Positions 1-63,238 of a stretch of 64,000 bases of DNA are shown piece after piece. The stretch's first letter is position 1. Every line of letters starts with the position of its first letter. Source of the stretch: Escherichia coli. GTDB lineage: Bacteria > Pseudomonadota > Gammaproteobacteria > Enterobacterales > Enterobacteriaceae. The stretch lies in assembly GCF_003019035.1 (NCBI RefSeq), contig NZ_CP027447.1. One strand, written 5' to 3'. Below the pieces are notes generated by a model. That model saw only the letters and a program-made list of their open reading frames with translations, ran no database searches and was not told the origin of the DNA. The translations under genes and the position numbers were made by a program.

Positions 1-3000
1 CATTATTACTTCCGCGACTATCGACCCGGAACGCTTTTCGCGCCACTTTAATAATGCGCCGATTATCGAAGTCTCCGGTCGGACCTATCCGGTGGAAGTG
101 CGCTATCGCCCGATCGTTGAAGAAGCTGATGACACCGAGCGCGATCAGTTGCAGGCGATTTTTGACGCCGTAGACGAACTGAGCCAGGAAAGCCCTGGCG
201 ACATTCTGATCTTTATGAGCGGTGAGCGGGAAATTCGCGATACCGCCGATGCGCTGAACAAGCTAAATCTGCGGCATACCGAAATCTTGCCGCTTTATGC
301 GCGGCTTTCGAACAGCGAACAGAACCGCGTGTTCCAGTCGCACAGTGGACGGCGCATTGTGCTGGCGACCAACGTCGCGGAAACCTCGCTGACCGTACCG
401 GGTATTAAATACGTTATCGACCCCGGTACAGCGCGTATCAGCCGCTACAGCTATCGCACCAAAGTGCAGCGTTTGCCGATTGAACCCATTTCGCAGGCGT
501 CTGCCAATCAGCGTAAAGGCCGCTGTGGTCGTGTGTCCGAAGGGATCTGTATTCGTCTCTATTCCGAAGACGATTTCCTTTCGCGCCCGGAATTTACCGA
601 TCCGGAGATTCTGCGTACCAACCTGGCCTCGGTTATTTTGCAGATGACTGCGCTGGGGCTGGGCGATATCGCTGCGTTCCCGTTTGTTGAAGCACCGGAT
701 AAACGCAATATCCAGGATGGCGTGCGTCTGCTCGAAGAACTGGGCGCGATCACCACGGATGAACAGGCCAGCGCCTATAAACTGACGCCGCTCGGTCGCC
801 AGCTCTCGCAGTTGCCTGTCGACCCACGTCTGGCGCGTATGGTGCTGGAAGCGCAAAAACATGGCTGCGTGCGTGAGGCGATGATTATCACGTCCGCGCT
901 CTCCATTCAGGATCCGCGCGAGCGTCCGATGGATAAACAGCAGGCATCGGACGAAAAACATCGTCGCTTCCACGACAAAGAATCCGACTTCCTCGCGTTT
1001 GTAAATCTGTGGAATTATCTTGGCGAGCAGCAAAAGGCGCTTTCTTCCAACGCCTTCCGTCGCCTGTGTCGTACCGATTATCTCAACTATCTGCGCGTGC
1101 GCGAATGGCAGGATATCTACACCCAGTTGCGCCAGGTGGTGAAAGAACTTGGCATTCCGGTTAACAGCGAACCGGCGGAGTATCGTGAAATTCACATTGC
1201 GTTGCTGACGGGTTTACTTTCCCATATCGGCATGAAAGATGCCGATAAACAAGAATATACCGGCGCACGTAACGCGCGTTTCTCCATTTTCCCCGGTTCC
1301 GGCTTATTTAAAAAGCCGCCGAAATGGGTAATGGTGGCGGAACTGGTAGAAACCAGCCGCCTGTGGGGGCGCATTGCTGCGCGTATCGACCCGGAATGGG
1401 TAGAACCCGTTGCTCAGCATTTGATTAAACGCACCTACAGCGAACCGCACTGGGAACGGGCGCAGGGCGCGGTGATGGCAACGGAAAAAGTCACTGTTTA
1501 TGGTTTGCCGATTGTTGCTGCGCGCAAGGTCAACTACAGCCAGATCGATCCGGCGTTATGTCGTGAACTCTTTATTCGCCACGCTCTGGTGGAAGGTGAC
1601 TGGCAGACGCGTCACGCATTCTTCCGTGAAAACCTGAAACTGCGGGCCGAAGTGGAAGAGCTGGAACACAAATCACGTCGCCGCGATATTCTGGTTGATG
1701 ACGAAACGTTGTTTGAGTTCTACGACCAGCGCATCAGCCACGATGTAATCTCCGCTCGTCACTTCGACAGCTGGTGGAAAAAAGTCAGCCGCGAAACGCC
1801 TGATTTGCTCAACTTTGAAAAGAGCATGTTGATCAAAGAAGGGGCGGAAAAAATCAGCAAGCTGGATTATCCGAACTTCTGGCATCAGAGCAATCTCAAG
1901 CTGCGTTTGAGCTATCAGTTTGAGCCCGGCGCGGATGCTGACGGTGTGACTGTGCATATCCCGCTGCCGCTGCTTAATCAGGTAGAAGAGAGCGGGTTTG
2001 AATGGCAAATCCCCGGCCTGCGCCGCGAACTGGTGATTGCTCTGATTAAATCGTTGCCGAAACCGGTACGCCGTAATTTTGTACCTGCGCCAAACTATGC
2101 CGAAGCGTTTTTAGGCCGCGTCAAACCGCTGGAGTTACCGTTGCTCGACAGTCTTGAGCGCGAGTTACGGCGGATGACCGGTGTTACCGTTGACCGCGAA
2201 GACTGGCACTGGGATCAGGTGCCCGATCACCTGAAAATCACCTTCCGCGTGGTGGATGACAAAAACAAGAAGCTAAAAGAAGGGCGCTCTCTACAAGATC
2301 TGAAAGATGCGCTGAAAGGCAAAGTGCAGGAAACGCTGTCTGCGGTGGCGGATGACGGTATCGAGCAGAGCGGCTTACATATCTGGAGTTTTGGTCAGCT
2401 GCCGGAAAGCTACGAACAGAAGCGTGGTAACTACAAAGTGAAGGCGTGGCCGGCGCTGGTGGATGAACGCGACAGCGTGGCGATCAAACTGTTTGATAAT
2501 CCGCTGGAACAAAAGCAGGCAATGTGGAACGGTCTTCGCCGTCTACTGCTGCTGAATATTCCATCGCCGATCAAGTATTTGCATGAAAAGTTACCGAACA
2601 AAGCCAAGCTGGGGCTGTACTTTAACCCGTATGGCAAAGTGCTGGAGCTGATCGACGACTGTATCTCCTGCGGGGTGGATCAACTGATCGACGCCAATGG
2701 TGGCCCGGTCTGGACGGAAGAAGGCTTTGCTGCGCTGCATGAGAAAGTGCGTGCCGAACTGAACGACACGGTGGTGGATATTGCGAAGCAGGTCGAGCAA
2801 ATTCTTACGGCAGTGTTCAATATCAACAAACGTCTGAAAGGGCGGGTGGATATGACCATGGCGCTGGGGCTTTCTGACATTAAAGCGCAGATGGGCGGGC
2901 TGGTGTATCGCGGTTTTGTGACTGGTAACGGCTTCAAACGGTTGGGCGACACGCTGCGTTATTTGCAGGCGATTGAAAAACGACTGGAAAAACTGGCGGT

Positions 3001-3229
3001 TGATCCGCATCGTGACCGTGCTCAGATGCTGAAAGTCGAAAACGTCCAGCAGGCGTGGCAGCAATGGATCAACAAACTGCCGCCTGCACGTCGTGAGGAT
3101 GAAGACGTGAAAGAGATCCGCTGGATGATAGAAGAGCTGCGCGTCAGCTACTTCGCTCAACAACTTGGTACGCCTTATCCGATTTCGGATAAGCGTATTT
3201 TGCAGGCGATGGAGCAGATTAGCGGTTAA
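1..3229 (+). CDS. hrpA: ATP-dependent RNA helicase HrpA, C-terminal ~1045 codons; 5' end lies upstream of the window
   Basis: Open frame runs from the window edge to the stop at 3227-3229; translated sequence recognised as the HrpA C-terminal region; hairpin terminator follows. Confidence 0.9.
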   Translation, partial: IITSATIDPERFSRHFNNAPIIEVSGRTYPVEVRYRPIVEEADDTERDQLQAIFDAVDELSQESPGDILIFMSGEREIRDTADALNKLNLRHTEILPLYARLSNSEQNRVFQSHSGRRIVLATNVAETSLTVPGIKYVIDPGTARISRYSYRTKVQRLPIEPISQASANQRKGRCGRVSEGICIRLYSEDDFLSRPEFTDPEILRTNLASVILQMTALGLGDIAAFPFVEAPDKRNIQDGVRLLEELGAITTDEQASAYKLTPLGRQLSQLPVDPRLARMVLEAQKHGCVREAMIITSALSIQDPRERPMDKQQASDEKHRRFHDKESDFLAFVNLWNYLGEQQKALSSNAFRRLCRTDYLNYLRVREWQDIYTQLRQVVKELGIPVNSEPAEYREIHIALLTGLLSHIGMKDADKQEYTGARNARFSIFPGSGLFKKPPKWVMVAELVETSRLWGRIAARIDPEWVEPVAQHLIKRTYSEPHWERAQGAVMATEKVTVYGLPIVAARKVNYSQIDPALCRELFIRHALVEGDWQTRHAFFRENLKLRAEVEELEHKSRRRDILVDDETLFEFYDQRISHDVISARHFDSWWKKVSRETPDLLNFEKSMLIKEGAEKISKLDYPNFWHQSNLKLRLSYQFEPGADADGVTVHIPLPLLNQVEESGFEWQIPGLRRELVIALIKSLPKPVRRNFVPAPNYAEAFLGRVKPLELPLLDSLERELRRMTGVTVDREDWHWDQVPDHLKITFRVVDDKNKKLKEGRSLQDLKDALKGKVQETLSAVADDGIEQSGLHIWSFGQLPESYEQKRGNYKVKAWPALVDERDSVAIKLFDNPLEQKQAMWNGLRRLLLLNIPSPIKYLHEKLPNKAKLGLYFNPYGKVLELIDDCISCGVDQLIDANGGPVWTEEGFAALHEKVRAELNDTVVDIAKQVEQILTAVFNINKRLKGRVDMTMALGLSDIKAQMGGLVYRGFVTGNGFKRLGDTLRYLQAIEKRLEKLAVDPHRDRAQMLKVENVQQAWQQWINKLPPARREDEDVKEIRWMIEELRVSYFAQQLGTPYPISDKRILQAMEQISG

Positions 3230-3253
3230 CCCTGCTATTTGCCTGATAAATCT

Positions 3254-3287
3254 AAAACCCGGTAAGCATTTAGCGCCGGGTTTTTTA
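3254..3287 (+). terminator. Rho-independent terminator after hrpA
   Basis: Inverted repeat aaaacccgg...ccgggtttt followed by a T-run. Confidence 0.6.
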
Positions 3288-3500
3288 TTAATTCTAAAAC
3301 GGTAAGCGAAAAAATTCAGGAATTCAGAAAAATACAATTCTCTGCTGCAAGATGAATAATGTTTATCTACAGCATTTCCTTAAAAGATATGTCAGGCTTG
3401 CGGAGTGGCGGTTAAGGGAATACGACTTCCTCCTTTCAGAGTGCTCCGCTTCTCACTATTATCTCACGCAGTATTCTTAAGGGAACGATAAGGAGGAACC

Positions 3501-45798: not shown

Positions 45799-45815
45799 AT
45801 GAGCGGAAAACCAGC
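45799..45815 (+). pseudogene. 5' stub of an rhs gene (start codon plus about 5 codons) truncated by an H-repeat element
   Basis: atgagcggaaaacc matches the first 14 nt of the intact rhs at 53550 (atgagcggaaaacccgcg...), followed directly by the H-repeat left end cagggaaagatca at 45816. Confidence 0.7.
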
Positions 45816-47106
45816 CAGGGAAAGATCATCAGAAGTACACTTTTTGTACTAAACAATTCGCATTTTATGTTTAAAAATTGAGATATTCCTCATTACCTGA
45901 AGCTGTTTTTTATTGCTTATACATGATCAAATACTCCTTACATAATTAAGGAGAACAAAATGGAACTTAAAAAATTGATGGAGCATATTTCTATTATCCC
46001 CGATTACAGACAAGCCTGGAAAGTGGAACATAAATTATCGGACATTCTACTGTTGACTATTTGTGCCGTTATTTCTGGTGCAGAAGGCTGGGAAGATATA
46101 GAGGATTTTGGGGAAACACATCTCGATTTTTTGAAGCAATATGGTGATTTTGAAAATGGTATTCCTGTTCACGATACCATTGCCAGAGTTGTATCCTGTA
46201 TCAGTCCTGCAAAATTTCACGAGTGCTTTATTAACTGGATGCGTGACTGCCATTCTTCAGATGATAAAGGCGTCATTGCAATTGATGGAAAAACGCTCCG
46301 GCACTCTTATGACAAGAGTCGCCGCAGGGGAGCGATTCATGTCATTAGTGCGTTCTCAACAATGCACAGTCTGGTCATCGGACAGATCAAGACGGATGAG
46401 AAATCCAATGAGATTACAGCTATCCCAGAACTTCTTAACATGCTGGATATTAAAGGAAAAATCATCACAACTGATGCGATGGGTTGCCAGAAAGATATTG
46501 CAGAGAAGATACAAAAACAGGGAGGTGATTATTTATTCGCTGTAAAAGGAAATCAGGGGCGGCTTAATAAAGCCTTTGAGGAAAAATTTCCACTGAAAGA
46601 ATTAAATAATCCAGAGCATGACAGTTACGCAATGAGTGAAAAGAGTCACGGCAGAGAAGAAATCCGTCTTCACATTGTTTGCGATGTCCCTGATGAACTT
46701 ATTGATTTCACGTTTGAATGGAAAGGTCTGAAGAAATTATGCGTGGCAGTCTCCTTTCGGTCAATAATAGCAGAACAAAAGAAAGAGCCAGAAATGACGG
46801 TCAGATATTATATCAGTTCTGCTGATTTAACCGCAGAGAAGTTCGCCACAGCAATCCGAAACCACTGGCACGTGGAGAATAAGCTGCACTGGCGTCTGGA
46901 CGTGGTAATGAATGAAGACGACTGCAAAATAAGAAGAGGAAACGCCGCAGAATTATTTTCAGGGATACGGCACATCGCTATTAATATTTTAACGAATGAT
47001 AAGGTATTCAAGGCAGGGTTAAGACGTAAGATGCGAAAAGCTGCCATGGACAGAAACTATCTCGCGTCAGTCCTTGCGGGGAGCGGGCTTTCGTAATCTT
47101 TCCCTG
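45816..47106 (+). mobile_element. H-repeat (ISAs1-family) element, copy A, 1291 bp
   Basis: Terminal inverted repeats cagggaaaga (left) and tctttccctg (right); encodes a 378-aa transposase; nearly identical to copies at 50594-51884 and 58348-59638. Confidence 0.85.
45960..47096 (+). CDS. ISAs1-family transposase (H repeat-associated protein, YdcC/YhhI-like)
   Basis: 378-aa ORF with SD aaggag; three near-identical copies in the window. Confidence 0.88.
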
Positions 47107-48889
47107 GCTGCTGGAGTTCACGCGCGACCGCCTGCACCGGGAGACGGTGCGCAGCTTCGGCAGCATGGCAGGCAGTAATGCCGCATACGAACTGACCAGC
47201 ACATACACCCCCGCAGGCCAGTTACAGAGCCAGCACCTGAACAGCCTGGTATATGACCGTGACTACGGGTGGAGTGACAACGGCGACCTGGTGCGCATCA
47301 GCGGCCCGCGACAGACGCGGGAATACGGCTACAGCGCCACGGGCAGGCTGGAGAGTGTGCGCACCCTCGCACCGGACCTGGACATCCGCATCCCGTATGC
47401 CACGGACCCGGCGGGCAACCGGCTGCCGGACCCGGAGCTGCACCCGGACAGTACACTCACAGTGTGGCCGGATAACCGAATCACCGAAGACGCGCACTAC
47501 CTGTACCGTTACGATGAATACGGCAGGCTGACGGAGAAGACGGACCGCATCCCGGCGGGTGTGATACGGACGGACGACGAGCGGACCCACCACTACCGCT
47601 ACGACAGCCAGCACCGCCTGGTGTTCCACACGCGGATACAGCATGGCGAGCCACTGGTCGAGAGCCGCTACCTCTACGACCCGCTGGGACGGCGAATGGC
47701 AAAACGGGTCTGGCGGCGGGAGCGTGACCTGACGGGGTGGATGTCGCTGTCGCGTAAACCGGAGGAGACATGGTACGGGTGGGACGGCGACAGGCTGACG
47801 ACGGTGCAGACTGACACCACACGTATCCAGACGGTCTACCAGCCGGGGAGCTTCACGCCGCTCATCCGTATCGAGACAGAGAACGGCGAACGGGAGAAAA
47901 TGCAACGCCGCAGCCTGGCGGAGAAGTTACAGTCGGAAGGGAGTGAGGACGGTCACGGTGTGGTGTTCCCGGCTGAGCTGGTGAGGATGCTGGACAGGCT
48001 GGAGGAAGAAATCCGGGCAGACCGCGTGAGCAGTGAAAGCCGGGCGTGGCTTGCGCAGTGCGGGCTGACGGTGGAGCAACTGGCCAGACAGGTGGAGCCG
48101 GAATACACACCGGCGCGAAAAGTTCATTTTTACCACTGCGACCACCGGGGCCTGCCGCTGGCGCTCATCAGCGAAGACGGCAATACGGTGTGGAGCGGGG
48201 AGTATGATGAATGGGGCAACCAGCTTAATGAGGAGAACCCGCATCATGTGTATCAGCCATACCGCCTGCCGGGGCAGCAGTATGATGAGGAGTCGGGGCT
48301 GTACTATAACCGCAACCGGTACTATGATCCGTTGCAGGGGAGGTATATTACCCAGGATCCGATTGGGCCGGTGGGGGGGTGGAATCCCTATAGTTATGTG
48401 CTTATTAATCCAGCCCAGTTTATTGACCCAACAGGTTTAACTCAAGAGGACAATTGGACCTATGGTGAGGTAGGTAATAGCTGTGTTACGAGTCAACGCG
48501 ATTTTACTCCCCCGCCCGGACTTGCGGATATGAAAGCCAGCATTGGCGCTGCCTGCTCAAGAAACAATGCTTCCAGAAACTGCCACCCCGTAGATGGTAG
48601 TAATGCTTCTGCACCATCGGATAAAGCCGCATGGGAAAATATTCAAAATGCGACAAATGGTAAAGATTTATCTGGTGGTGGAAATATGTTTTGTGTAGGA
48701 AATGAGGACTGTGCGGTTGTTCATAGCTGTCGTGAAATAGTTAATGCTCGACACCCGGCAGGACGAGTGCGTGAACGTGTAACTCCGTTAACAACGTCAG
48801 GAACAGCAACGCTCAATGGAACAACAGTTTACTTTTATAATGATCCCCGGAATGGCAATTGTCCTGCTCACGAATATATTCCTCAATAA
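47107..48889 (+). pseudogene. rhsE: Orphan Rhs 3' fragment (rhsE-like): distal core repeats plus a divergent C-terminal toxin tip; no native start codon
   Basis: Begins abruptly at the right end of H-repeat copy A; 47107-48355 is collinear, without indels, with 55994-57242 of the intact rhs (about 93% amino-acid identity); DPIGP motif at 48356-48370; unique C-terminal about 173 codons. Confidence 0.8.
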
Positions 48890-48939
48890 AGAAAAGTGGC
48901 CAGACTAAGCTCTAGCCACATTTTTTGGAGATCCTTTTC

Positions 48940-49563
48940 ATGAAAAGGTTTTTTATAACATGTTGCGTTATGACATTATTTTTATTTGTTAAATGTAAAG
49001 CAGCGTGTGTAACTTCCTTATATGAGGTTCAGCAATCGCTCTTTACATACATTTATTTGATTAGACAAGACCCTGTTCATTTTGATTCATATATTAAGAA
49101 TGTGCATAACGAATTAAAAATATTCCATGATATTGATAAAGCAATGAATATAGCCTCAGATATGGTCAAAATTATTGATATAAAGACCCGTTTATCATTT
49201 AATAATGATTTATATATATTACAAGGGGAACGACAGTATGCAATAGTTAAGAGTGAAGGGGAAAGTAGTCAATTAAAATCATCAGCATTTATCATATCTA
49301 ATTACCCACTATTTAAAAACAAAGTTCTGTTAATTTTATCCGCTACTAGTCCCGTTCAGTTGGTTATATTGTCTTTTGATCAATGTCTTAATGTGGAGGT
49401 GTTATTTGATTCAATGTCTCCAGTTTTCGCTAAGTATAGAGAAGATATTAGTGCAACATTACCATTATGGAAGGTTATTTTGACAAAAAATGATATAGAA
49501 TTATATGAGTACCATAGAACAAATCCATACTCACTTAACAAATTATTGAGCATGTCAAAATAA
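48940..49563 (+). CDS. Putative immunity protein for the orphan Rhs-CT (AT-rich, signal-peptide-like N-terminus)
   Basis: ORF 48925-49563 (TTG) or ATG at 48940 (MKRFFITCCVMTLFLFVKCKAAC...); directly downstream of the toxin tip; low GC. Confidence 0.6.
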   Translation: MKRFFITCCVMTLFLFVKCKAACVTSLYEVQQSLFTYIYLIRQDPVHFDSYIKNVHNELKIFHDIDKAMNIASDMVKIIDIKTRLSFNNDLYILQGERQYAIVKSEGESSQLKSSAFIISNYPLFKNKVLLILSATSPVQLVILSFDQCLNVEVLFDSMSPVFAKYREDISATLPLWKVILTKNDIELYEYHRTNPYSLNKLLSMSK

Positions 49564-49748
49564 CGGTCAAGTATTCAACGTTGTAATATTATTCCTTTTG
49601 CTGAGTGTCTCGAACGGCTAAAGTTGACGTAAAATGCCACGTTTTGTGGGCAAACCGAATCGGTTAAAAAGCATGGTCCGGGAAAAGCTTAACATCAGCG
49701 CTATCGGTGCCAAATGTGCAGCAGGCCTTTCCAGCCTGATTACCAGGG

Positions 49749-50004
49749 CAGGGCGGGATCGTGAATATTGTGATGCATATCACATGAACTCCTGGTTTTA
49801 ACTTATTATTTCGGTTAAAATTTAACCACTGAAATCATTAGGATTCGAGCAAAGGGACGGCATATGGATATTCAAAATTTACTGGATTATATTTCTATAA
49901 TTCCTGATTATCGTCAGCAAGGGAAAATAAGGCATAAATTGTCAGATATTTTATTGCTCACTATATGTGCTATTATTGCCGGTTCTGATGAATGGGAGGA
50001 TATT
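49749..50004 (+). mobile_element. Truncated H-repeat variant (fragment D): left end plus first about 47 codons of transposase
   Basis: IR-like cagggcgggatcgtga at about 49749; ORF start 49864 ([48 protein letters not shown]) interrupted by the next element. Confidence 0.65.
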
Positions 50005-50593
50005 CAGGGCAAGATCATGAAAATCGTGATGTAAATCACAATTTTCAACCTGGCTTTAACTCCTTCAGGAGATTAAAATTTAACCTATGGAATAACTAAA
50101 AAGATAAAAAAGGACGCCAGATGAGTATTCAAAGTTTGCTTGATTATATTTCAGTGTTCCCTGATATACGACAACAAGGAAAGGTTAAACATAAATTATC
50201 TGATATTTTGTTTCTCACCGTATGTGCAGTAATTGCAGGTGCCGATGAGTGGCAGGAAATTGAAGATTTTGGACATGAAAGACTGGAATGGCTAAAGAAA
50301 TATGGTGATTTTGATAATGGCATTCCGGTCGATGACACCATTGCACGCGTTGTGAGTAACATTGACAGTTTGGCCTTTGAAAAGATGTTTATTGAATGGA
50401 TGCAGGAGTGCCATGAAATCACTGATGGTGAAATTATAGCAATAGATGGAAAGACCATAAGAGGCTCCTTTGATAAGGGAAAAAGGAAAGGAGCAATCCA
50501 TATGGTGAGTGCATTCTCGACTGAAAATGGTGTTGTACTGGGGCAGGTGAAAACGGAAGCCAAAAGTAATGAGATTACAGCCATTCCAGAGTT
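50005..50593 (+). mobile_element. Truncated H-repeat variant (fragment E) inserted into fragment D and itself cut by copy B
   Basis: Left end cagggcaagatca at 50005; transposase N-terminal 158 codons (ORF 50121..., diverged from copies A-C) ending where the copy B left IR starts at 50594. Confidence 0.7.
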
Positions 50594-51884
50594 CAGGGAA
50601 AGATCATCAGAAGTACACTTTTTGTACTAAACAATTCGCATTTTATGTTTAAAAATTGAGATATTCCTCATTACCTGAAGCTGTTTTTTATTGCTTATAC
50701 ATGATCAAATACTCCTTACATAATTAAGGAGAACAAAATGGAACTTAAAAAATTGATGGAACATATTTCTATTATCCCCGATTACAGACAAGCCTGGAAA
50801 GTGGAACATAAATTATCGGATATTCTACTGTTGACTATTTGTGCCGTTATTTCGGGTGCAGAAGGCTGGGAAGATATAGAGGATTTTGGGGAAACACATC
50901 TCGATTTTTTGAAGCAATATGGTGATTTTGATAATGGTATTCCTGTTCACGATACCATTGCCAGAGTTGTATCCTGTATCAGTCCTGCAAAATTTCACGA
51001 GTGCTTTATTAACTGGATGCGTGACTGCCATTCTTCAGATGATAAAGACGTCATCGCAATTGATGGAAAAACACTCCGGCATTCTTATGACAAGAGTCGC
51101 CGCAGGGGAGCGATTCATGTCATTAGTGCGTTCTCAACAATGCACAGTCTGGTCATCGGACAGATCAGGACGGATGAGAAATCCAATGAGATCACAGCTA
51201 TCCCTGAACTTCTTAACATGCTGGATATTAAAGGAAAAATTATCACAACTGATGCAATGGGTTGCCAGAAAGATATTGCAGAGAAGATACAAAAACAGGG
51301 CGGTGATTATTTATTCGCTGTAAAAGGAAATCAGGGTCGGCTAAATAAAGCCTTTGAGGAAAAATTCCCACTGAAAGAATTAAATAATCCAGAACATGAC
51401 AGTTACGCAATGAGTGAAAAGAGTCACGGCAGAGAAGAAATCCGTCTTCACATTGTTTGCGATGTCCCTGATGAACTTATTGATTTCACGTTTGAATGGA
51501 AAGGTCTGAAGAAATTATGCGTGGCAGTCTCCTTTCGGTCAATAATAGCAGAACAAAAGAAAGAGCCAGAAATGACGGTCAGATATTATATCAGTTCTGC
51601 TGATTTAACCGCAGAGAAGTTCGCCACAGCAATCCGAAACCACTGGCACGTGGAGAATAAGCTGCACTGGCGTCTGGACGTGGTAATGAATGAAGACGAC
51701 TGCAAAATAAGAAGAGGAAACGCCGCAGAATTATTTTCAGGGATACGGCACATCGCTATTAATATTTTGACGAATGATAAGGTATTCAAGGCAGGGTTAA
51801 GACGTAAGATGCGAAAAGCTGCCATGGACAGAAACTATCTCGCGTCAGTCCTTGCGGGGAGCGGGCTTTCGTAATCTTGCCCTG
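50594..51884 (+). mobile_element. H-repeat (ISAs1-family) element, copy B, 1291 bp
   Basis: Same IRs and length as copy A. Confidence 0.85.
50738..51874 (+). CDS. ISAs1-family transposase (H repeat-associated protein)
   Basis: 378-aa ORF, a few substitutions relative to copy A. Confidence 0.88.
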
Positions 51885-51896
51885 CTTTGTAATGGT

Positions 51897-52079
51897 ATGG
51901 CAGGAGGATATGAATTTGCAGTAAGTAAATTTGGTCAGTCGGCCTATGATGCCGCACAGGAAAAAGCATTAAATAACTATATGGAATTTGAAATGTTAGA
52001 TTTATTACAAAGCATGGGAGAGAATGTCAATCCAGATGAATATAAGCAGGCGCATGATAGAGTTGTTAATCCAAATTGA
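51897..52079 (+). CDS. Small ORF (60 aa) starting just outside the copy B right end; possibly the 3' remnant of a toxin tip
   Basis: ORF 51852-52079 begins inside the IS right end; first ATG outside the IS at 51897 (MAGGYEFAVSKFG...); stop overlaps the next gene. Confidence 0.35.
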   Translation: MAGGYEFAVSKFGQSAYDAAQEKALNNYMEFEMLDLLQSMGENVNPDEYKQAHDRVVNPN

Positions 52080-52093
52080 ATGCAGAGGGGAGT

Positions 52094-52657
52094 ATGTTAT
52101 TAAAACTGATAATGTTATTTTCAATATTTTTTATCCCGTTTTTGGCAGGTTGCAGTATGTTTGATGATGTTTTTGAGAAAAACTACTCATTGAGTTCTGT
52201 CGCCAGTTTTCCAGATGACGTTGATGAATTAAAAGAAATATGGTTTTTTTGTGAAAGATGTTTAAGTGATGAGCAGTGCGAAAATCATGACATTAAACAA
52301 TGTAGAGATGTAACTATTCCCGGTAGAGATGAAGCATTAAGTAAAGCTGTAGGCAGAGCCAATGTCGAAGCTGTTTACTTTCTTGTTGATGTGGCAAAAA
52401 CTGATGTCAATGGTATTACAGGTAAATATAAGGAAACACCATTAATTATTGCTGCATATTATGGAACTCAAGCACATCAGGATATAGCTGAATTTTTGCT
52501 ATTGCATGGGGCAGATATTAATAAAACTTACCCAGCCATTGGGCGAAATCCTCTAGGTGTCGCCAGATGGAAGCATAATGTCGATTTCGTTAATTTTCTA
52601 CTGAAGCATGGTGCTGAACCAGCAGTACATATGGGGTCGATTGAGAATAAAGAGTGA
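52094..52657 (+). CDS. Ankyrin-repeat lipoprotein (candidate immunity protein)
   Basis: ORF 52076-52657; ATG at 52094 preceded by gagggga; lipobox FLAGC; ankyrin-like repeats (TPLIIAAYYGTQAHQDIAEFLLLHGADIN, NPLGVARWKHNVDFVNFLLKHGAEP). Confidence 0.7.
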   Translation: MLLKLIMLFSIFFIPFLAGCSMFDDVFEKNYSLSSVASFPDDVDELKEIWFFCERCLSDEQCENHDIKQCRDVTIPGRDEALSKAVGRANVEAVYFLVDVAKTDVNGITGKYKETPLIIAAYYGTQAHQDIAEFLLLHGADINKTYPAIGRNPLGVARWKHNVDFVNFLLKHGAEPAVHMGSIENKE

Positions 52658-53100
52658 GATTTAACAAAAATGCAATTCATGCTCTCGCCTTGGGTGACGG
52701 TATTGATACTGCTTTTAAGTGTTCAGGAAAAATGGAAAGTGGTAAACCCTTAAAATCTTCGGGCAAATGGGATTACTCTGTTGGTGGGACAAATGGTGCC
52801 TTTCTTTATCTTAAAGACTATTCAAATATTTTGACGGCTGGCCACACAGGAAATCTGGCAGTTACTTTTCTTGGAAGTTACAATGCTCAATATTCAATAA
52901 ACGGAAACTCTCTGGATGTAGTTGTAACAAATTCTTCAACGATACAATCAGCGACACATCCCCCAATCCTGGAGTATACAAAATGGTGGCAGGATAATAT
53001 TGGTAATCCTTTGGATAGAAAATTTCAAAAAGGTCCCACGTCCCCAAAAACACAAACCATAAATTTACACTTTGATTTGTCATGTGCGTGCAAAAAATGA
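52654..53100 (+). CDS. Hypothetical protein, translationally coupled to flanking genes
   Basis: GTG at 52654 overlaps the upstream stop; alternative ATG at 52732; stop overlaps the downstream ATG (atga) at 53097. Confidence 0.5.
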   Translation: MRFNKNAIHALALGDGIDTAFKCSGKMESGKPLKSSGKWDYSVGGTNGAFLYLKDYSNILTAGHTGNLAVTFLGSYNAQYSINGNSLDVVVTNSSTIQSATHPPILEYTKWWQDNIGNPLDRKFQKGPTSPKTQTINLHFDLSCACKK

Positions 53101-53480
53101 AAATTTTATTTATGTTATTATTAATTATCTTGAGTGGATGTGATGGCGAAAATGATGCCAAATTTGTTGGGCAATGGCTTGCTGATATTGATGGTGATAT
53201 AAAATCAGAATTGATCGTGAAGGCAAATGGAATTTTTTATTTCAAGAATATGCCTATGGAGACAGTTTGTCGCGAGGATAAAACATATAAGGCTAATTTT
53301 TTCGGGGATTGGACTATTAATATTGACAATAGGATTGATATTTCAATGGATAATGTTAATTCTGAACGGTGTAATATTCCATCCTCGTATTTAATTAATG
53401 GGTTTTATGATGGTGGATATTTTTTATGTCAGAAAGGATTGTCTTTTTTCCAGACGGACCTGATGAGCCAGGTAATATGA
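53097..53480 (+). CDS. Small lipoprotein (candidate immunity protein)
   Basis: ORF 53082-53480; ATG at 53097 (MKILFMLLLIILSGCDGEND) with lipobox LSGC; AT-rich. Confidence 0.6.
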   Translation: MKILFMLLLIILSGCDGENDAKFVGQWLADIDGDIKSELIVKANGIFYFKNMPMETVCREDKTYKANFFGDWTINIDNRIDISMDNVNSERCNIPSSYLINGFYDGGYFLCQKGLSFFQTDLMSQVI

Positions 53481-53549
53481 TCATTTATATTAAACAATGA
53501 AAGTATTGATCGTGAGCAGATTAAATATATAAGAAATTAAGGAGATACC

Positions 53550-56500
53550 ATGAGCGGAAAACCCGCGGCACGCCAGGGTGATGCCACGCTGAAAGGCGGT
53601 CCGATAGTCCAGGGGTCAGCGGGGGTGCTGATAGGCGCGCCCACCGGCGTGGCGTGCTCGGTGTGTCCGGGCGGGATGACTTCGGGCAACCCGGTAAATC
53701 CGCTGCTGGGGGCGAAGGTGCTGCCCGGCGAGACGGACCTTGCCCTGCCCGGCCCGCTGCCGTTCATTCTCTCCCGCACCTACAGCAGCTACCGGACGAG
53801 GACGCCTGCCCCGGTGGGCGTTTTCGGCCCCGGCTGGAAAGCGCCTTCGGATATCCGCTTACAGCTACGTGATGACGCACTGATACTCAACGACAACGGC
53901 GGGCGGAGCATTCACTTTGAGCCGCTGCTGCCGGGGGAGGCGGTGTACAGCCGCAGCGAGTCAATGTGGCTGGTGCGCGGTGGTAAGGCAGCGCAGCCGG
54001 ACGGCCACACGCTGGCGCGACTGTGGGGGGCGCTGCCGCCGGATATCCGGTTAAGCCCGCATCTTTACCTGGCGACCAACAGCGCACAGGGGCCGTGGTG
54101 GATACTCGGCTGGTCAGAGCGGGTGCCGGGTACTGAGGACGTACTGCCAGCGCCGCTGCCGCCGTACCGGGTGCTTACCGGGCTGGCGGACCGCTTCGGG
54201 CAGACGCTGACGTACCGGCGTGAGGCCGCCGGTGACCTGGCCGGGGAAATCACCGGCGTGACGGACGGTGCCGGGCGGAAGTTCCGTCTGGTGCTGACCA
54301 CGCAGGCGCAGCGTGCGGAAGAGGCCCGCACCTCTTCGCTATCTTCTTCTGACCGTTCCCGCCCTCTCTCAGCCTCAGCGTTCCCCGACACACTGCCCGG
54401 TACGGAATACGGCCCCGACAGGGGCATCCGTCTTTCGGCGGTGTGGCTGATGCACGACCCGGCATACCCGGAAAGCCTGCCCGGTGCGCCACTGGCGCGG
54501 TACACGTATACGGAAGCCGGTGAACTGCTGGCGGTATATGACCGCAGCAATACGCAGGTGCGCGCTTTCACGTATGACGCGCAGCACCCGGGCCGGATGG
54601 TGGCGCACCGTTACGCGGGAAGGCCGGAGATGCGCTACCGCTACGACGATACGGGGCGGGTGGTGGAGCAACTGAACCCGGCAGGGTTAAGCTACCGCTA
54701 TCTTTATGAGCAGGACCGCATCACCATCACGGACAGCCTGAACCGGCGAGAGGTGCTGCATACAGAAGGCGGGGCCGGGCTGAAGCGGGTGGTGAAAAAA
54801 GAACTGGCGGACGGCAGCGTCACGCACAGCGGGTATGACGCGGCAGGAAGGCTCACGGCACAGACGGACGCGGCGGGACGGCAGACAGAGTACGGTCTGA
54901 ATGTGGTGTCAGGCGATATCACGGACATCACCACGCCGGACGGGCGGGAGACGAAATTTTACTATAACGACGGGAACCAGGTGACGGCAGTGGTGTCCCC
55001 GGACGGGCTGGAGAGCCGCCGGGCGTATGATGAGCGGGACAGGCTGGTAACGGAGACATCGCGCAGTGGGGACGTCATCCGGTATGCTTATGATAATCCG
55101 CACAGTGAATTACCGGCCACGACAACAGATGCGACGGGCAGCACCCGGCAGATGACCTGGAGCCGCTACGGGCAGTTGCTGGCGTTCACCGACTGCTCGG
55201 GCTACCAGACCCGCTATGAATACGACCGCTTCGGCCAGATGACGGCGGTCCACCGCGAGGAAGGCATCAGCCTTTACCGCCGCTATGACAACCGTGGCCG
55301 GTTAACCTCGGTGAAAGACGCACAGGCCCGTGAAACGCAGTATGAGTACAACGCCGCAGGCGACCTGACTGCCGTTATCACCCCGGATGGCAACCGGAGT
55401 GAGACACAGTACGATGGGTGGGGAAAGGCCATCAGCACCACGCAGGGCGGGCTGACGCGCAGTATGGAGTACGATGCTGCCGGACGTATCACCACGCTGA
55501 CTAACGAGAACGGCAGCCACAGCGACTTTAGTTACGATGCGCTGGACCGCCTGATACAGCAGGGCGGCTTTGACGGGCGGACGCAACGTTATCATTATGA
55601 CCTGACCGGAAAACTCACGCAGAGTGAAGATGAGGGGCTTGTCATCCTCTGGTACTACGATGAATCGGACCGTATTACTCACCGCACGGTAAACGGTGAA
55701 CCGGCAGAACAGTGGCGGTATGACGGCCACGGCTGGCTGAGAGAAATCAGCCACCTGAGCGAAGGCCACCGTGTTGCCGTCCACTATGGCTATGATAATA
55801 AAGGCCGCCTGACCAGTGAGCGCCAGACGGTGCATCACCCGGAGACGGGAGAGCTGCTCTGGCAGCATGAGACCGGACATGCGTACAACGAACAGGGGCT
55901 GGCAAACCGCGTCACGCCGGACAGTCTGCCGCCGGTGGAGTGGCTGACCTATGGTAGCGGTTATCTGGCAGGCATGAAGCTGGGCGGGACGCCGCTGCTG
56001 GAGTTCACGCGCGACCGCCTGCACCGTGAGACGGTGCGCAGCTTCGGCAGCATGGCAGGCAGTAATGCCGCATACGAACTGACCAGCACATACACCCCTG
56101 CAGGCCAGTTACAGAGTCAGCACCTGAACAGCCTGGTGTATGACCGTGACTACGGGTGGAATGACAACGGAGACCTGGTGCGCATCAGCGGCCCGCGACA
56201 GACGCGGGAATACGGCTACAGCGCCACGGGCAGGCTGGAGAGTGTGCGCACCCTCGCACCGGACCTGGACATCCGCATCCCGTATGCCACGGACCCGGCG
56301 GGCAACCGGCTGCCGGACCCGGAGCTGCACCCGGACAGTACACTCACAGTGTGGCCGGATAACCGCATCGCGGAGGATGCGCACTATGTCTACCGCCACG
56401 ATGAATACGGCAGGCTGACGGAGAAGACGGACCGCATCCCGGCGGGTGTGATACGGACGGACGACGAGCGGACCCACCACTACCACTACGACAGCCAGCA

Positions 56501-57803
56501 CCGCCTGGTGTTCTACACGCGGATACAGCATGGCGAGCCACTGGTCGAGAGCCGCTACGTCTACGACCCGCAGGGACGGCGAATGGCGAAACGGGTATGG
56601 CGGCGGGAGCGTGACCTGACGGGGTGGATGTCGCTGTCGCGTAAACCGGAGGTGACGTGGTACGGCTGGGACGGCGACCACCTGACGACGGTGCAGACCG
56701 ACAGCACACGTATCCAGACGGTATACGAGCCGGGAAGCTTCACACCGCTCATCCGCATCGAAACAGACAACGGCGAGCGGGAGAAAACGCAGCGGCGGAG
56801 CCTGGCGGAGAAGCTCCAGCAGGAAGGGAGCGAGGACGGACACGGTGTGGTGTTCCCGGCTGAACTGGTGAGGATGCTGGACAGGCTGGAGGAAGAAATC
56901 CGGGCAGACCGCGTGAGCGGTGAAAGCCGGACGTGGCTTGCACAGTGCGGGCTGGCGGTGGAGCAACTGGAAAAACAGGTGGAGCCGGAATACACGCCGG
57001 AACGCACACTGCATCTTTACCACTGCGACCACCGGGGACTGCCGCTGGCGCTTATCAGCGAAGACGGCAATACGGTGTGGAGCGCGGAGTATGATGAATG
57101 GGGAAACCTGCTTAATGAGGAGAACCCGCATCATGTGTATCAGTCATACCGTCTGCCGGGGCAGCAGCATGATGAGGAGTCGGGGCTGTATTATAACCGG
57201 AACCGGTACTATGACCCGCTACAGGGGAGGTATATCACCCAGGATCCAATCGGGCTAAGAGGTGAATGGAATCTGTATAAATATCCATTAAACCCTGTTC
57301 GGTTTATAGATTCTTTGGGTTTAAAATTCCATGTTAACGGTGATCCAAGTGATTTTAATCAGGCTGTTGAGTATTTAAAACAAGATTCACGAATGAAAGA
57401 AGCTATAGATTTTTTATCAAGCTCTGAAGAAACCATAAAGATAGAGTATATTGATGAAACCGACGTTAGATTTGACCCGGATAAAATGACTATATATTGG
57501 AATGGTAAGGCGGCTTTATTTTGTTCAACTGATTTAAAATCGAAATCACAATCACCTGCATTAGGTTTGGGGCATGAGTTTGCTCATGCGCACTTATATC
57601 TTATTGATAAGGATGGTTATATGGGGCTTGTGAGACGTGCGGATGAACAATATAAAAATAAAGAAGAGGCGAGAGTTATCACTTTAATTGAACAGCATGC
57701 GGCGAAAACTTTAGGTGAGTGTACCAGAACAGCATATAATGGAGTGTATTATCGTGTGAATACACCAACGCAGACGGCAACAATAAATGGCACGCCAGAA
57801 TAG
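53550..57803 (+). CDS. rhs: Full-length Rhs polymorphic toxin: PAAR-like N-terminus, YD-repeat shell, DPxGL autoproteolysis motif, C-terminal HExxH-containing toxin tip
   Basis: 1417-aa ORF with SD aaggag; N-terminal [11 protein letters not shown]...CSVCPGG; RHS/YD repeats; PxxxxDPIGL at 57243-57257; C-terminal about 180 aa contain [11 protein letters not shown]. Confidence 0.92.
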
Positions 57804-57815
57804 TGAGATTTTTTT

Positions 57816-58265
57816 ATGATGAAATATTTGATGGTTTTATTGTCTCTATTTTCTGCTTCGGTATTGGGGATGGGGCGAGTGAATGAATTGTGTGGAATAG
57901 ATAGTGTGAAAACGATAGAAATAATTAATCTTCCAGCATATGTTACCACCTTAACCCCGCTTAGCAAGGAAGGTCTCAAGAGAATATACAAACATAAAGT
58001 GGTGGTGAATGGAGTTAGCGATTTTTATGCTGGTGAGATAATTGATTTATTGCAAATGAAGTATTTCAGGAAGGAGGAGAATAACGATATAAGATGGGGG
58101 GTTGACATTGTTTCGAATAAAAATAATAAATGTGAAATTTATTTTGATGGTTTTGGTGAATGTGGAAGTGTGAATGGCATTAACGTATGTTTTGAAAAAA
58201 ATGAAATGATAGATTGGATTAAAAAAGAAATCCCTTTTCTGTCGCAAGAAATAGGTGGTCTTTAA
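57816..58265 (+). CDS. Putative cognate immunity protein with N-terminal signal peptide
   Basis: 149-aa ORF 12 nt downstream of the rhs stop; hydrophobic N-terminus MMKYLMVLLSLFSASVLG; AT-rich. Confidence 0.7.
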   Translation: MMKYLMVLLSLFSASVLGMGRVNELCGIDSVKTIEIINLPAYVTTLTPLSKEGLKRIYKHKVVVNGVSDFYAGEIIDLLQMKYFRKEENNDIRWGVDIVSNKNNKCEIYFDGFGECGSVNGINVCFEKNEMIDWIKKEIPFLSQEIGGL

Positions 58266-58322
58266 ATGGTAGGGCAATATTCAAAGACAGTATAGGTAAC
58301 TATTTGTATGGACATGTAAGGT

Positions 58323-58372
58323 CAGGGAAAGATCACGTAACGCTGCTCAGGGAAAGATCACGTAACGCTGCT
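58323..58372 (+). repeat. Perfect 25-bp tandem duplication of the H-repeat left terminus
   Basis: cagggaaagatcacgtaacgctgct occurs twice in direct tandem (58323-58347 and 58348-58372); measured from the second unit the element is 1291 bp, the same as copies A and B. Confidence 0.85.
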
Positions 58373-59638
58373 TTTTTGTACTAAACAATCCGCATTTTAT
58401 GTTTAAAAATTGAGATATTCCTCATTACCTAAAGCTGTTTTTTATTGCTTATACATGATCAAATACTCCTTACATAATTAAGGAGAACAAAATGGAACTT
58501 AAAAAATTGATGGAACATATTTCTATTATCCCCGATTACAGACAAGCCTGGAAAGTGGAACATAAATTATCGGATATTCTACTGTTGACTATTTGTGCCG
58601 TTATTTCGGGTGCAGAAGGCTGGGAAGATATAGAGGATTTTGGGGAAACACATCTCGATTTTTTGAAGCAATATGGTGATTTTGATAATGGTATTCCTGT
58701 TCACGATACCATTGCCAGAGTTGTATCCTGTATCAGTCCTGCAAAATTTCACGAGTGCTTTATTAACTGGATGCGTGACTGCCATTCTTCAGATGATAAA
58801 GACGTCATCGCAATTGATGGAAAAACACTCCGGCATTCTTATGACAAGAGTCGCCGCAGGGGAGCGATTCATGTCATTAGTGCGTTCTCAACAATGCACA
58901 GTCTGGTCATCGGACAGATCAGGACGGATGAGAAATCCAATGAGATCACAGCTATCCCTGAACTTCTTAACATGCTGGATATTAAAGGAAAAATTATCAC
59001 AACTGATGCAATGGGTTGCCAGAAAGATATTGCAGAGAAGATACAAAAACAGGGCGGTGATTATTTATTCGCTGTAAAAGGAAACCAGGGGCGGCTAAAT
59101 AAAGCCTTCGAGGAAAAATTTCCGCTGAAAGAATTAAATAATCCAGAGCATGACAGTTACGCAATGAGTGAAAAGAGTCACGGCAGAGAAGAAATCCGTC
59201 TTCACATTTTTTGCGATGTCCCTGATGAACTTATTGATTTCACGTTTGAATGGAAAGGTCTGAAGAAATTATGCGTGGCAGTCTCCTTTCGGTCAATAAT
59301 AGCAGAACAAAAGAAAGAGCCAGAAATGACGGTCAGATATTATATCAGTTCTGCTGATTTAACCGCAGAGAAGTTCGCCACAGCAATCCGAAACCACTGG
59401 CACGTGGAGAATAAGCTGCACTGGCGTCTGGACGTGGTAATGAATGAAGACGACTGCAAAATAAGAAGAGGAAATGCAGCAGAATTATTTTCAGGGATAC
59501 GGCACATCGCTATTAATATTTTGACGAATGATAAGGTATTCAAGGCAGGGTTAAGACGTAAGATGCGAAAAGCAGCCATGGACAGAAACTATCTGGCGTC
59601 AGTCCTTGCGGGGAGCGGGCTTTCGTAATCTTTCCCTG
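58348..59638 (+). mobile_element. H-repeat (ISAs1-family) element, copy C, 1291 bp
   Basis: Same terminal IRs; internal bases 14-25 differ from copies A and B (cgtaacgctgct versus tcagaagtacac). Confidence 0.85.
58492..59628 (+). CDS. ydcC: ISAs1-family transposase (H repeat-associated protein, ydcC-equivalent position)
   Basis: 378-aa ORF; position before yddH corresponds to ydcC of reference strains. Confidence 0.8.

Positions 59639-62014: not shown

Positions 62015-63238
<1,224 letters not shown>

Follow-up and report, generated by a model that had tools for sequence, protein, structure and literature searches.

Insertion sequences of the ISAs1 family, as defined in ISfinder, are about 1.2-1.5 kb long and have short terminal inverted repeats which start with CAGGG. 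Tandem and defective elements of the H-repeat (H-rpt) type have been known downstream of rhs genes since 1993, i.e. the copies C1-C3 at RhsC and the pair yncI/ydcC at RhsE, both in Escherichia coli K-12. The tandem defective RhsC copies (ybfQ, ybfL, ybfD) are said to have been described by Zhao et al. in J Bacteriol 1993. Given in element coordinates, the K-12 RhsC structure is C1 (nt 1-380), C2, then C3 (from nt 25). At K-12 RhsE a defective ISEc26-type element, yncI, is followed by ydcC (H-rptE), which is of the ISEc1/ISEc5-type. Among other insertion sequences, IS1 makes adjacent deletions, and IS30 and IS911 insert next to resident ends. To our knowledge, experiments on the ISAs1 family have revealed neither IS-mediated deletion of flanking DNA nor targeting of ends. 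Nor do we know of an experimental demonstration that an element of the H-rpt type transposes; the 1993 account by Zhao et al. reportedly gives none.

Here we analysed a window, i.e. a whole stretch of 64,000 nucleotides, which represents the RhsE region of an E. coli chromosome with the gene order yncG-yncH, vgrG, rhs genes, yddH, nhoA. It contains three complete H-rpt copies of 1291 bp each (A, B and C) and two fragments (D and E). All five pieces are on the plus strand, co-oriented with the rhs genes, and the stack with D, E and B is located 3' of a toxin/immunity module, as in the Rhs-associated H-rpt arrays at RhsB, RhsC and RhsE of K-12. The string CAGGGNNNGATC occurs seven times in the window compared to 0.33 expected occurrences, and none of 100 shuffles reached seven; six of the seven occurrences belong to H-rpt left ends. 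On the minus strand, 62035-63015 is an ORF of 326 aa. In strain SCU-301 it is annotated as an IS110-like IS621 family transposase and is located between nhoA and yddE.

A stack of truncated elements downstream of a toxin/immunity module

A toxin gene (47147-48889) and a putative immunity gene (48925-49563) are followed downstream by the stack. A sequence-only reading had described 49749-51884 as three generations of ISAs1-family elements inserted into one another. The interval consists of three ISAs1-family (H-rpt) elements in the same orientation. The stack reaches further left than that reading had noted, as an IS1-like fragment precedes D. The features are:

49566..49743 (start approximate), plus strand: IS1-like 5' fragment with the left end and the start of an insA-like frame; outermost layer
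49744..49748, plus strand: extra CAGGG directly before the left terminus of D; absent from the native IS1-like sequence
49749..50004, plus strand: fragment D, 256 bp; left end, leader and 47 codons (49864-50004); ISAs1 family, PF13808
50005..50593, plus strand: fragment E, initial 589 bp of an ISEc26-type (K-12 yncI-type) element; left end, leader and ~158 codons
50594..51884, plus strand: element B, ISEc1/ISEc5-type H-rpt of 1291 bp, complete with left and right termini
50738..51874, plus strand: transposase ORF of B, intact, 378 aa
51885..52079, plus strand: 3' tail of an rhs C-terminal toxin ORF, last ~195 bp, cut flush by the right end of B
52076-52657: ankyrin-repeat immunity gene following the rhs toxin tail

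Left termini are located at 49749 (CAGGGCGGGATCG), 50005 (CAGGGCAAGATCA) and 50594 (CAGGGAAAGATCA); the last base of a right terminus (AATCTTGCCCTG) is 51884. As had been claimed, each junction coincides with the exact position of the CAGGG left terminus of the next element, i.e. D is cut flush by E and E is cut flush by B. D and E carry the left repeat only. B has both termini, CAGGGAAAGATCA at the left and, as the complement of the right end, CAGGGCAAGATTA. The reading frame of E starts at 50121 and comprises 157 codons plus 2 nt up to the B junction. The truncated E frame then runs into the left end of B, which creates a 169-aa ORF (50121-50630) containing the whole PF13808 domain and only the start of the catalytic domain.

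D and E share 69% of their nucleotides and 72% of their amino acids; amino acid identities are 66% between D and B and 61% between E and B. With left termini of their own and pairwise identities of about 70%, D, E and B are separate ISAs1-family elements or subtypes, just as the sequence-only reading had it. That D and E are a single contiguous, diverged copy was ruled out because each has a separate left terminus, a leader and a start codon (Met) of its own. In profile searches the B transposase scored 416 bits with NF033564 (ISAs1 family transposase; cut-off 70 bits) and matched PF13808 and PF01609 at full length. E scored 183 bits with NF033564 and matched PF13808 and the first third of PF01609, ending at profile position 67 of 200; D matched PF13808 only (51 bits). 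In size (1291 bp) and in its CAGGG-type inverted repeats B also conforms to the family.

B is 97% identical to the K-12 ydcC H-rpt. Over its 589 bp, E matches the start of the yncI H-rpt of E. coli C and K-12, a pseudogene, at 96.9% identity and is collinear with the full ISEc26 of O157. D was found past its first 11 nt in SCU-301 only; in a distant blastn search of 5,426 complete E. coli genomes the next-best nucleotide identity was 73%. Its best protein relative is a Salmonella fragment (79% identical), and the protein search yielded short fragments only. No full-length relative of D was present in the 5,426 E. coli genomes searched by blastn, in the protein search or in 100,044 species genomes; a scan of the latter with 20-mers of D gave four chance matches and no similarity beyond them. 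The IS1-like fragment is 92% identical to a full IS1-family element on plasmid p12A2, and the homology ends with ...GATTAC at 49743. In SCU-301, 49566-49743 is annotated as a partial IS1 family transposase. The following CAGGG (49744-49748) is possibly a 5-nt stub of the left end of another H-rpt; it is too short to prove this. The string CAGGG followed by CAGGGCGGGAT is retained in strain 88-3493.

SCU-301 is the sole strain among the 5,426 genomes in which 49400-52400 is unbroken (99.7% identity). Its complete genome is 100% identical to 49560-50130, and the entire stack is found there, too. The junction between E and B was seen in SCU-301 only.

The right side of B lacks the expected counterparts

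To the right of B the tail of the rhs toxin ORF starts abruptly. Strain D8 carries this DNA as the end of an intact rhs gene, and the homology to the window sets in at exactly 51885. The order of the toxin/immunity modules differs between D8 and the window: the module with the ankyrin-repeat immunity gene precedes the 47147-49563 module in D8 and follows it in the window.

Right halves of D or E are absent from the whole window. In line with this, the last ten nucleotides of each fragment, E 580-589 (TTCCAGAGTT) and D 247-256 (GGAGGATATT), follow no right terminus in the window. None of the 5,426 genomes matched a synthetic query built for the right junction that an insertion at E589 would create. 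An 8-10 bp target-site duplication, as it goes with the ISAs1 family, is absent at A, B and C, the three complete copies of the window. Because related copies elsewhere do have 10-bp duplications, this absence indicates later rearrangement and not a different family. An intact IS within an IS would show both halves of the recipient collinear and a duplication on the far side; neither is present in the window. Thus, of the proposed nested insertions we retain the co-oriented elements, each cut by the next one, and drop the intact nesting, as the right half of a recipient and a target duplication are lacking. The D/E/B interval is a one-sided staircase, not an intact nest. This means that at least one further event, a deletion or a recombination, is needed.

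A target motif common to the junctions was looked for by eye across about 16 left-flank and 14 right-flank sequences, and no consensus emerged. The K-12 junction has just 2 nt of possible microhomology (CA). A common target motif was therefore rejected.

Intact nests and shortened versions at related loci

The right junction predicted for a nest of the K-12 yncI-ydcC type was used as a synthetic query. It was matched unbroken in 284 E. coli genomes, a count of right-junction matches, with both halves and the duplication read at one locus, that of O121 strain RM8352. At its yafV locus the order is ISEc26 (1-1208), ISEc1 and an ISEc26 3' remnant, and the 10-bp duplication GCGTTAAACA flanks the insert. 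A second nest with a 10-bp duplication, CAGACAAGCC, was present in metagenome contigs. To judge from these alignments, same-orientation insertion of one H-rpt into another is a genuine mode for these elements. The general statement that H-repeats insert into one another is accordingly carried by related loci, with both halves and 10-bp duplications, and not by an intact nest in the window. In K-12 and in E. coli C the left junction at RhsE is identical to that in RM8352, and the right duplication and the remnant are missing. So a one-sided loss has occurred before, and the yncI-ydcC pair of K-12 derives from a genuine insertion event in which one H-rpt entered another.

Other strains have shorter versions of the stack, which in each case follow the putative immunity gene and the IS1-like fragment seen in the window. 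In 88-3493 and five other strains ...ATTAC is followed by CAGGG, CAGGGCGGGAT and CAGGGAAAGATC, i.e. D comprises only 11 nt and then ISEc1 begins. In TB06051, D8 and two others the IS1-like fragment stops at window position 49710, which is 33 bp before 49743 and 38 bp before D, and is joined directly to the ISEc1 left terminus. A comparable variation exists at the starts of rhs genes. There, left termini follow rhs nt 100, about 37 or 17, and in one case a left terminus with a 25-nt stub is located 23 nt upstream of the start. Right termini abut differing points in rhs cores. Hence strains differ in the endpoints of the flanks, and all endpoints, left and right, are joined to an exact IS terminus.

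Copies A and C, left-end variants and stubs

The other two complete copies of the window are flanked as follows:

45816..47106, plus strand: H-rpt copy A, complete; replaces 2378 bp missing from an rhs gene (comparison with 88-3493); no target duplication
58323..58347, plus strand: left-terminus stub of 25 nt immediately before copy C
58348..59638, plus strand: H-rpt copy C, complete; variant left-end cassette CGTAACGCTGCT; no target duplication

Copy A is flanked (45799-47147) by the first 17 nt of an rhs gene on the left and by a 3' part of an rhs core on the right. This arrangement has left 47147-48889 as a 5'-truncated rhs core-toxin fragment directly behind vgrG. Generally, the flanks of A, B and C are non-contiguous rhs pieces. 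The first 25 nt of copy C (CAGGGAAAGATCACGTAACGCTGCT) are present twice in tandem (58323-58372); at the position of the stub other strains have the first 37-100 nt of an rhs gene, then an H-rpt.

Two left-end variants, TCAGAAGTACAC and CGTAACGCTGCT, were compared at 45816-45840, 50594-50618 and 58348-58372. Their differences are confined to nt 14-25, and from nt 26 onward there are none. The variable sites of the three complete copies form a patchwork, in which the left end of B agrees with A and its stretch between about nt 85 and 740 agrees with C. Copy A combines the left-end cassette of B with the right terminus of C and, as far as these sites tell, looks like a recombinant. The patchwork indicates that recombination or gene conversion among co-oriented copies has been active in the locus. 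The module boundaries carry H-rpt copies, and a comparison of 45816-59638 with D8 and 88-3493 suggests that modules were reshuffled through them.

Metagenome contigs were scanned for a left-terminus motif at most 30 nt upstream of an ISEc1-type left end, a search that also returned many unrelated chance matches. Among several distinct H-rpt-related alleles the stub lengths were 11, 12 (in up to three tandem copies), 13, 16, 18, 25 and 34 nt. The 25-nt stub occurred in four sequence combinations, the one at 58323-58347 of the window and three from the scan. Right-terminus stubs were absent from 14 distinct right flanks, which had been chosen for left stubs so that an asymmetry is not established by this number. 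Between contig SKEH01002363.1 (L028) and the contigs L021 and L080 the copy number of the 12-nt terminus CAGGGAAAGATC varied, with 0, 1 or 3 tandem copies sitting between an 18-nt stub and the full element. Slippage or repeated re-insertion could produce this variation. A shared sequence, TGTGCCGTAGGCACAAAGATGCAAAACGG, follows H-rpt left-end stubs of 14-16 nt at L004 12836-12880 and in roughly 20 metagenome contigs, L027 among them; this sequence may be the end of another mobile element.

How the stack may have formed

We favor the view that the one-sided stack at the downstream edge of the rhs toxin/immunity module arose by successive insertions in the same orientation, followed by loss of the right-hand parts (probability about 0.6). 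The anatomy of the stack, the missing right halves and duplications, the insertions with 10-bp duplications at related loci and the mosaic of A, B and C are seen in the sequences, whereas we infer the order of events and how the right halves disappeared. First, an IS1-like element would have inserted after the immunity gene. Second, the ISAs1-family element D would have inserted into the IS1-like element, possibly after an element of which now only CAGGG is left. Third, the ISEc26-type E would have entered D at nt 256 and, fourth, the ISEc1-type B would have entered E at nt 589, all in the same orientation. B would then be the innermost and youngest element and is still intact. The right remnants of E, D and the IS1-like element would have been removed together in one event. 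A likely route is homologous recombination of B with a co-oriented ISEc1-type copy further downstream, the product of which would be one hybrid copy with the left flank from one parent and the right flank from the other. Alternatively, the transposase may have made a deletion anchored on the right end of B. This view is supported by the flush junctions, by the related nests with 10-bp duplications, by the one-sided loss in K-12 and by the patchwork of A, B and C. Further support comes from the three complete copies, which lack target duplications and are flanked by non-contiguous rhs pieces, and from the nested endpoints of other strains at the IS1-like fragment. Intermediates were looked for at the junctions of the window, e.g. 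B followed by E from about nt 580, or E followed by D from about nt 247, and none was found. The divergence among D, E and B (~70% identity) is too great for recombination between them, so that the view needs either an unseen second ISEc1-type copy downstream or a deletion made by the transposase. As a counterpoint, the series from D256 over D11 to the shortened IS1-like fragment can equally be read as leftward deletions from the ISEc1 left terminus, without new insertions.

The latter point leads to the strongest alternative, in which nothing was nested. D, E and B would have been separate neighbors, and each downstream left terminus would have deleted DNA leftward by intramolecular, replicative or one-ended transposition, up to and including the right part of the upstream element. 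In favor of this are the variable left endpoints anchored on an H-rpt left terminus, i.e. D256, D11 and the IS1-like fragment to 49710, further the rhs endpoints at nt 100, about 37, 17 and -23, and E1208 versus E589. Right endpoints vary as well, anchored on the right terminus, and the overlapping coordinates of RhsC, C1 (1-380), C2 and C3 (from nt 25), are impossible to obtain from one simple insertion. However, three insertions plus two or three deletions, i.e. more events, would be needed here. The co-orientation of all remnants and the clustering of stubs at 11-13, 18, 25 and 34 nt would be left unexplained. Further, true insertions with 10-bp duplications are documented, whereas an adjacent-deletion activity is undocumented for the ISAs1 family. 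Finally, if an element inserts anew and then recombines with the older copy, the product is exactly that of an end-anchored deletion, and sequence alone cannot separate the two. On balance we consider independent neighbors with leftward deletions unlikely, at a chance which still deserves attention.

Considerably less probable is that the stack was built elsewhere and imported within an rhs accessory block, which would have recombined in through homology to the rhs core at its left and to an H-rpt at its right. A block of rhs core, ydcD, yncO, ISEc26 (1-1208) and ISEc1 indeed exists at two loci, RhsE (K-12, E. coli C) and yafV (O121), and locus-specific DNA is found solely to the right of its ISEc1 copy. 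D without a close relative in E. coli and the differing module order in the window and D8 would fit an import, too. Yet it would only move the question of formation to another genome, and it is compatible with insertion as well as with deletion. Moreover, six further E. coli chromosomes have the left junction of IS1-like fragment, CAGGG and D at this locus, which argues for local descent, at least of the outer layers. An assembly artefact is hardly credible: H-rpt copies 97-99% alike are often collapsed in short-read assemblies, and the metagenome contigs L021 and L078 disagree in this manner, but D, E and B with ~70% identity cannot be confused, the same junctions are present in the finished SCU-301 chromosome and short versions of the junction type occur in many independent assemblies.

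Returning to insertion followed by right-hand loss, the short stubs allow a more specific and tentative proposal, which we hold to be possible and somewhat less probable than its negation. H-rpts of the ISEc1 group may favor the left part of resident H-rpts, and above all its terminal ~35 bp, as a site of co-oriented re-insertion, whereupon new and old copies may recombine and collapse. Each round would leave a short stub of a left terminus, or a longer fragment if the recipient is a diverged subtype, and would also erase the intervening DNA. Repeated rounds could result in upstream erosion, in swaps of the 25-nt left-end cassette between subtypes and in rhs genes cut to fragments. The proposal is in keeping with the stub lengths, with the four combinations of the 25-nt stub and with left-end variants that differ in nt 14-25 only. 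The 34-nt stub and the start of K-12 C3 at nt 25 match the two sides of one kind of insertion with a 10-bp duplication. The clustering of the short stubs, as read from the alleles, hints at self-targeting of left ends. We know of no description of left-end self-targeting for the ISAs1 family. The interval itself had been termed a recurrent insertion hotspot; that label is better applied to the left parts of resident H-rpt copies. Self-targeting, if true, would give the poorly studied ISAs1 family its first described target preference, a matter of modest, specialist interest.

In this strain several short pseudogenes annotated as 'transposase family protein' are explained by the stack. The main use of the present data is in annotation and in the picture of Rhs locus evolution. 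Since H-rpt copies are located at the boundaries of truncated rhs genes and of toxin/immunity modules, insertion plus recombination is a plausible cause of rhs truncation and of the reshuffling of modules between strains.

Comparison with known systems

The products of IS1, IS30 and IS911, i.e. deletion series anchored on an IS end, head-to-tail arrays and short terminal remnants, resemble those in the window; the likeness is in the products only. Closer are the H-rpt arrays of E. coli itself. At K-12 RhsC, as in the window, three co-oriented H-rpts are located 3' of an rhs toxin/immunity module, and of C1 only the left 380 bp are present, ending flush where the left terminus of C2 begins. C3, which is joined to the right terminus of C2, is missing the first 24 nt. 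The RhsC copies are all of one subtype, whereas the window has three diverged subtypes plus an IS1-like layer.

In the yafV nest (RM8352 and 283 further genomes) an ISEc1-type element is inside or after an ISEc26-type element in the same orientation, as in the window, and its left junction is the same as that of K-12 yncI-ydcC. The yafV nest keeps both halves of the recipient and the GCGTTAAACA duplication; the window keeps neither. The yncI-ydcC pair at K-12 RhsE is even at the chromosomal locus of the window, between yncH and yddH/nhoA, and the window has the same element types in the same order and orientation. K-12 yncI, like E of the window, ends flush at CAGGGAAAGATCA and lacks a right remnant. 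The extent of the E-type element differs, with 1203 bp kept in K-12 (cut at ISEc26 position 1208) and 589 bp in the window. The left neighbor differs as well, being ydcD/yncO in K-12 and fragment D in the window. These differences in neighbor and extent identify E of the window as a separate copy. We had considered a simple 614-bp deletion which would convert the K-12-type junction E1208-B into E589-B; with D instead of ydcD/yncO on the left this is now unlikely. Taken together, the window is a strain-specific and deeper example of the known Rhs-locus pattern, with D as an otherwise unseen subtype.
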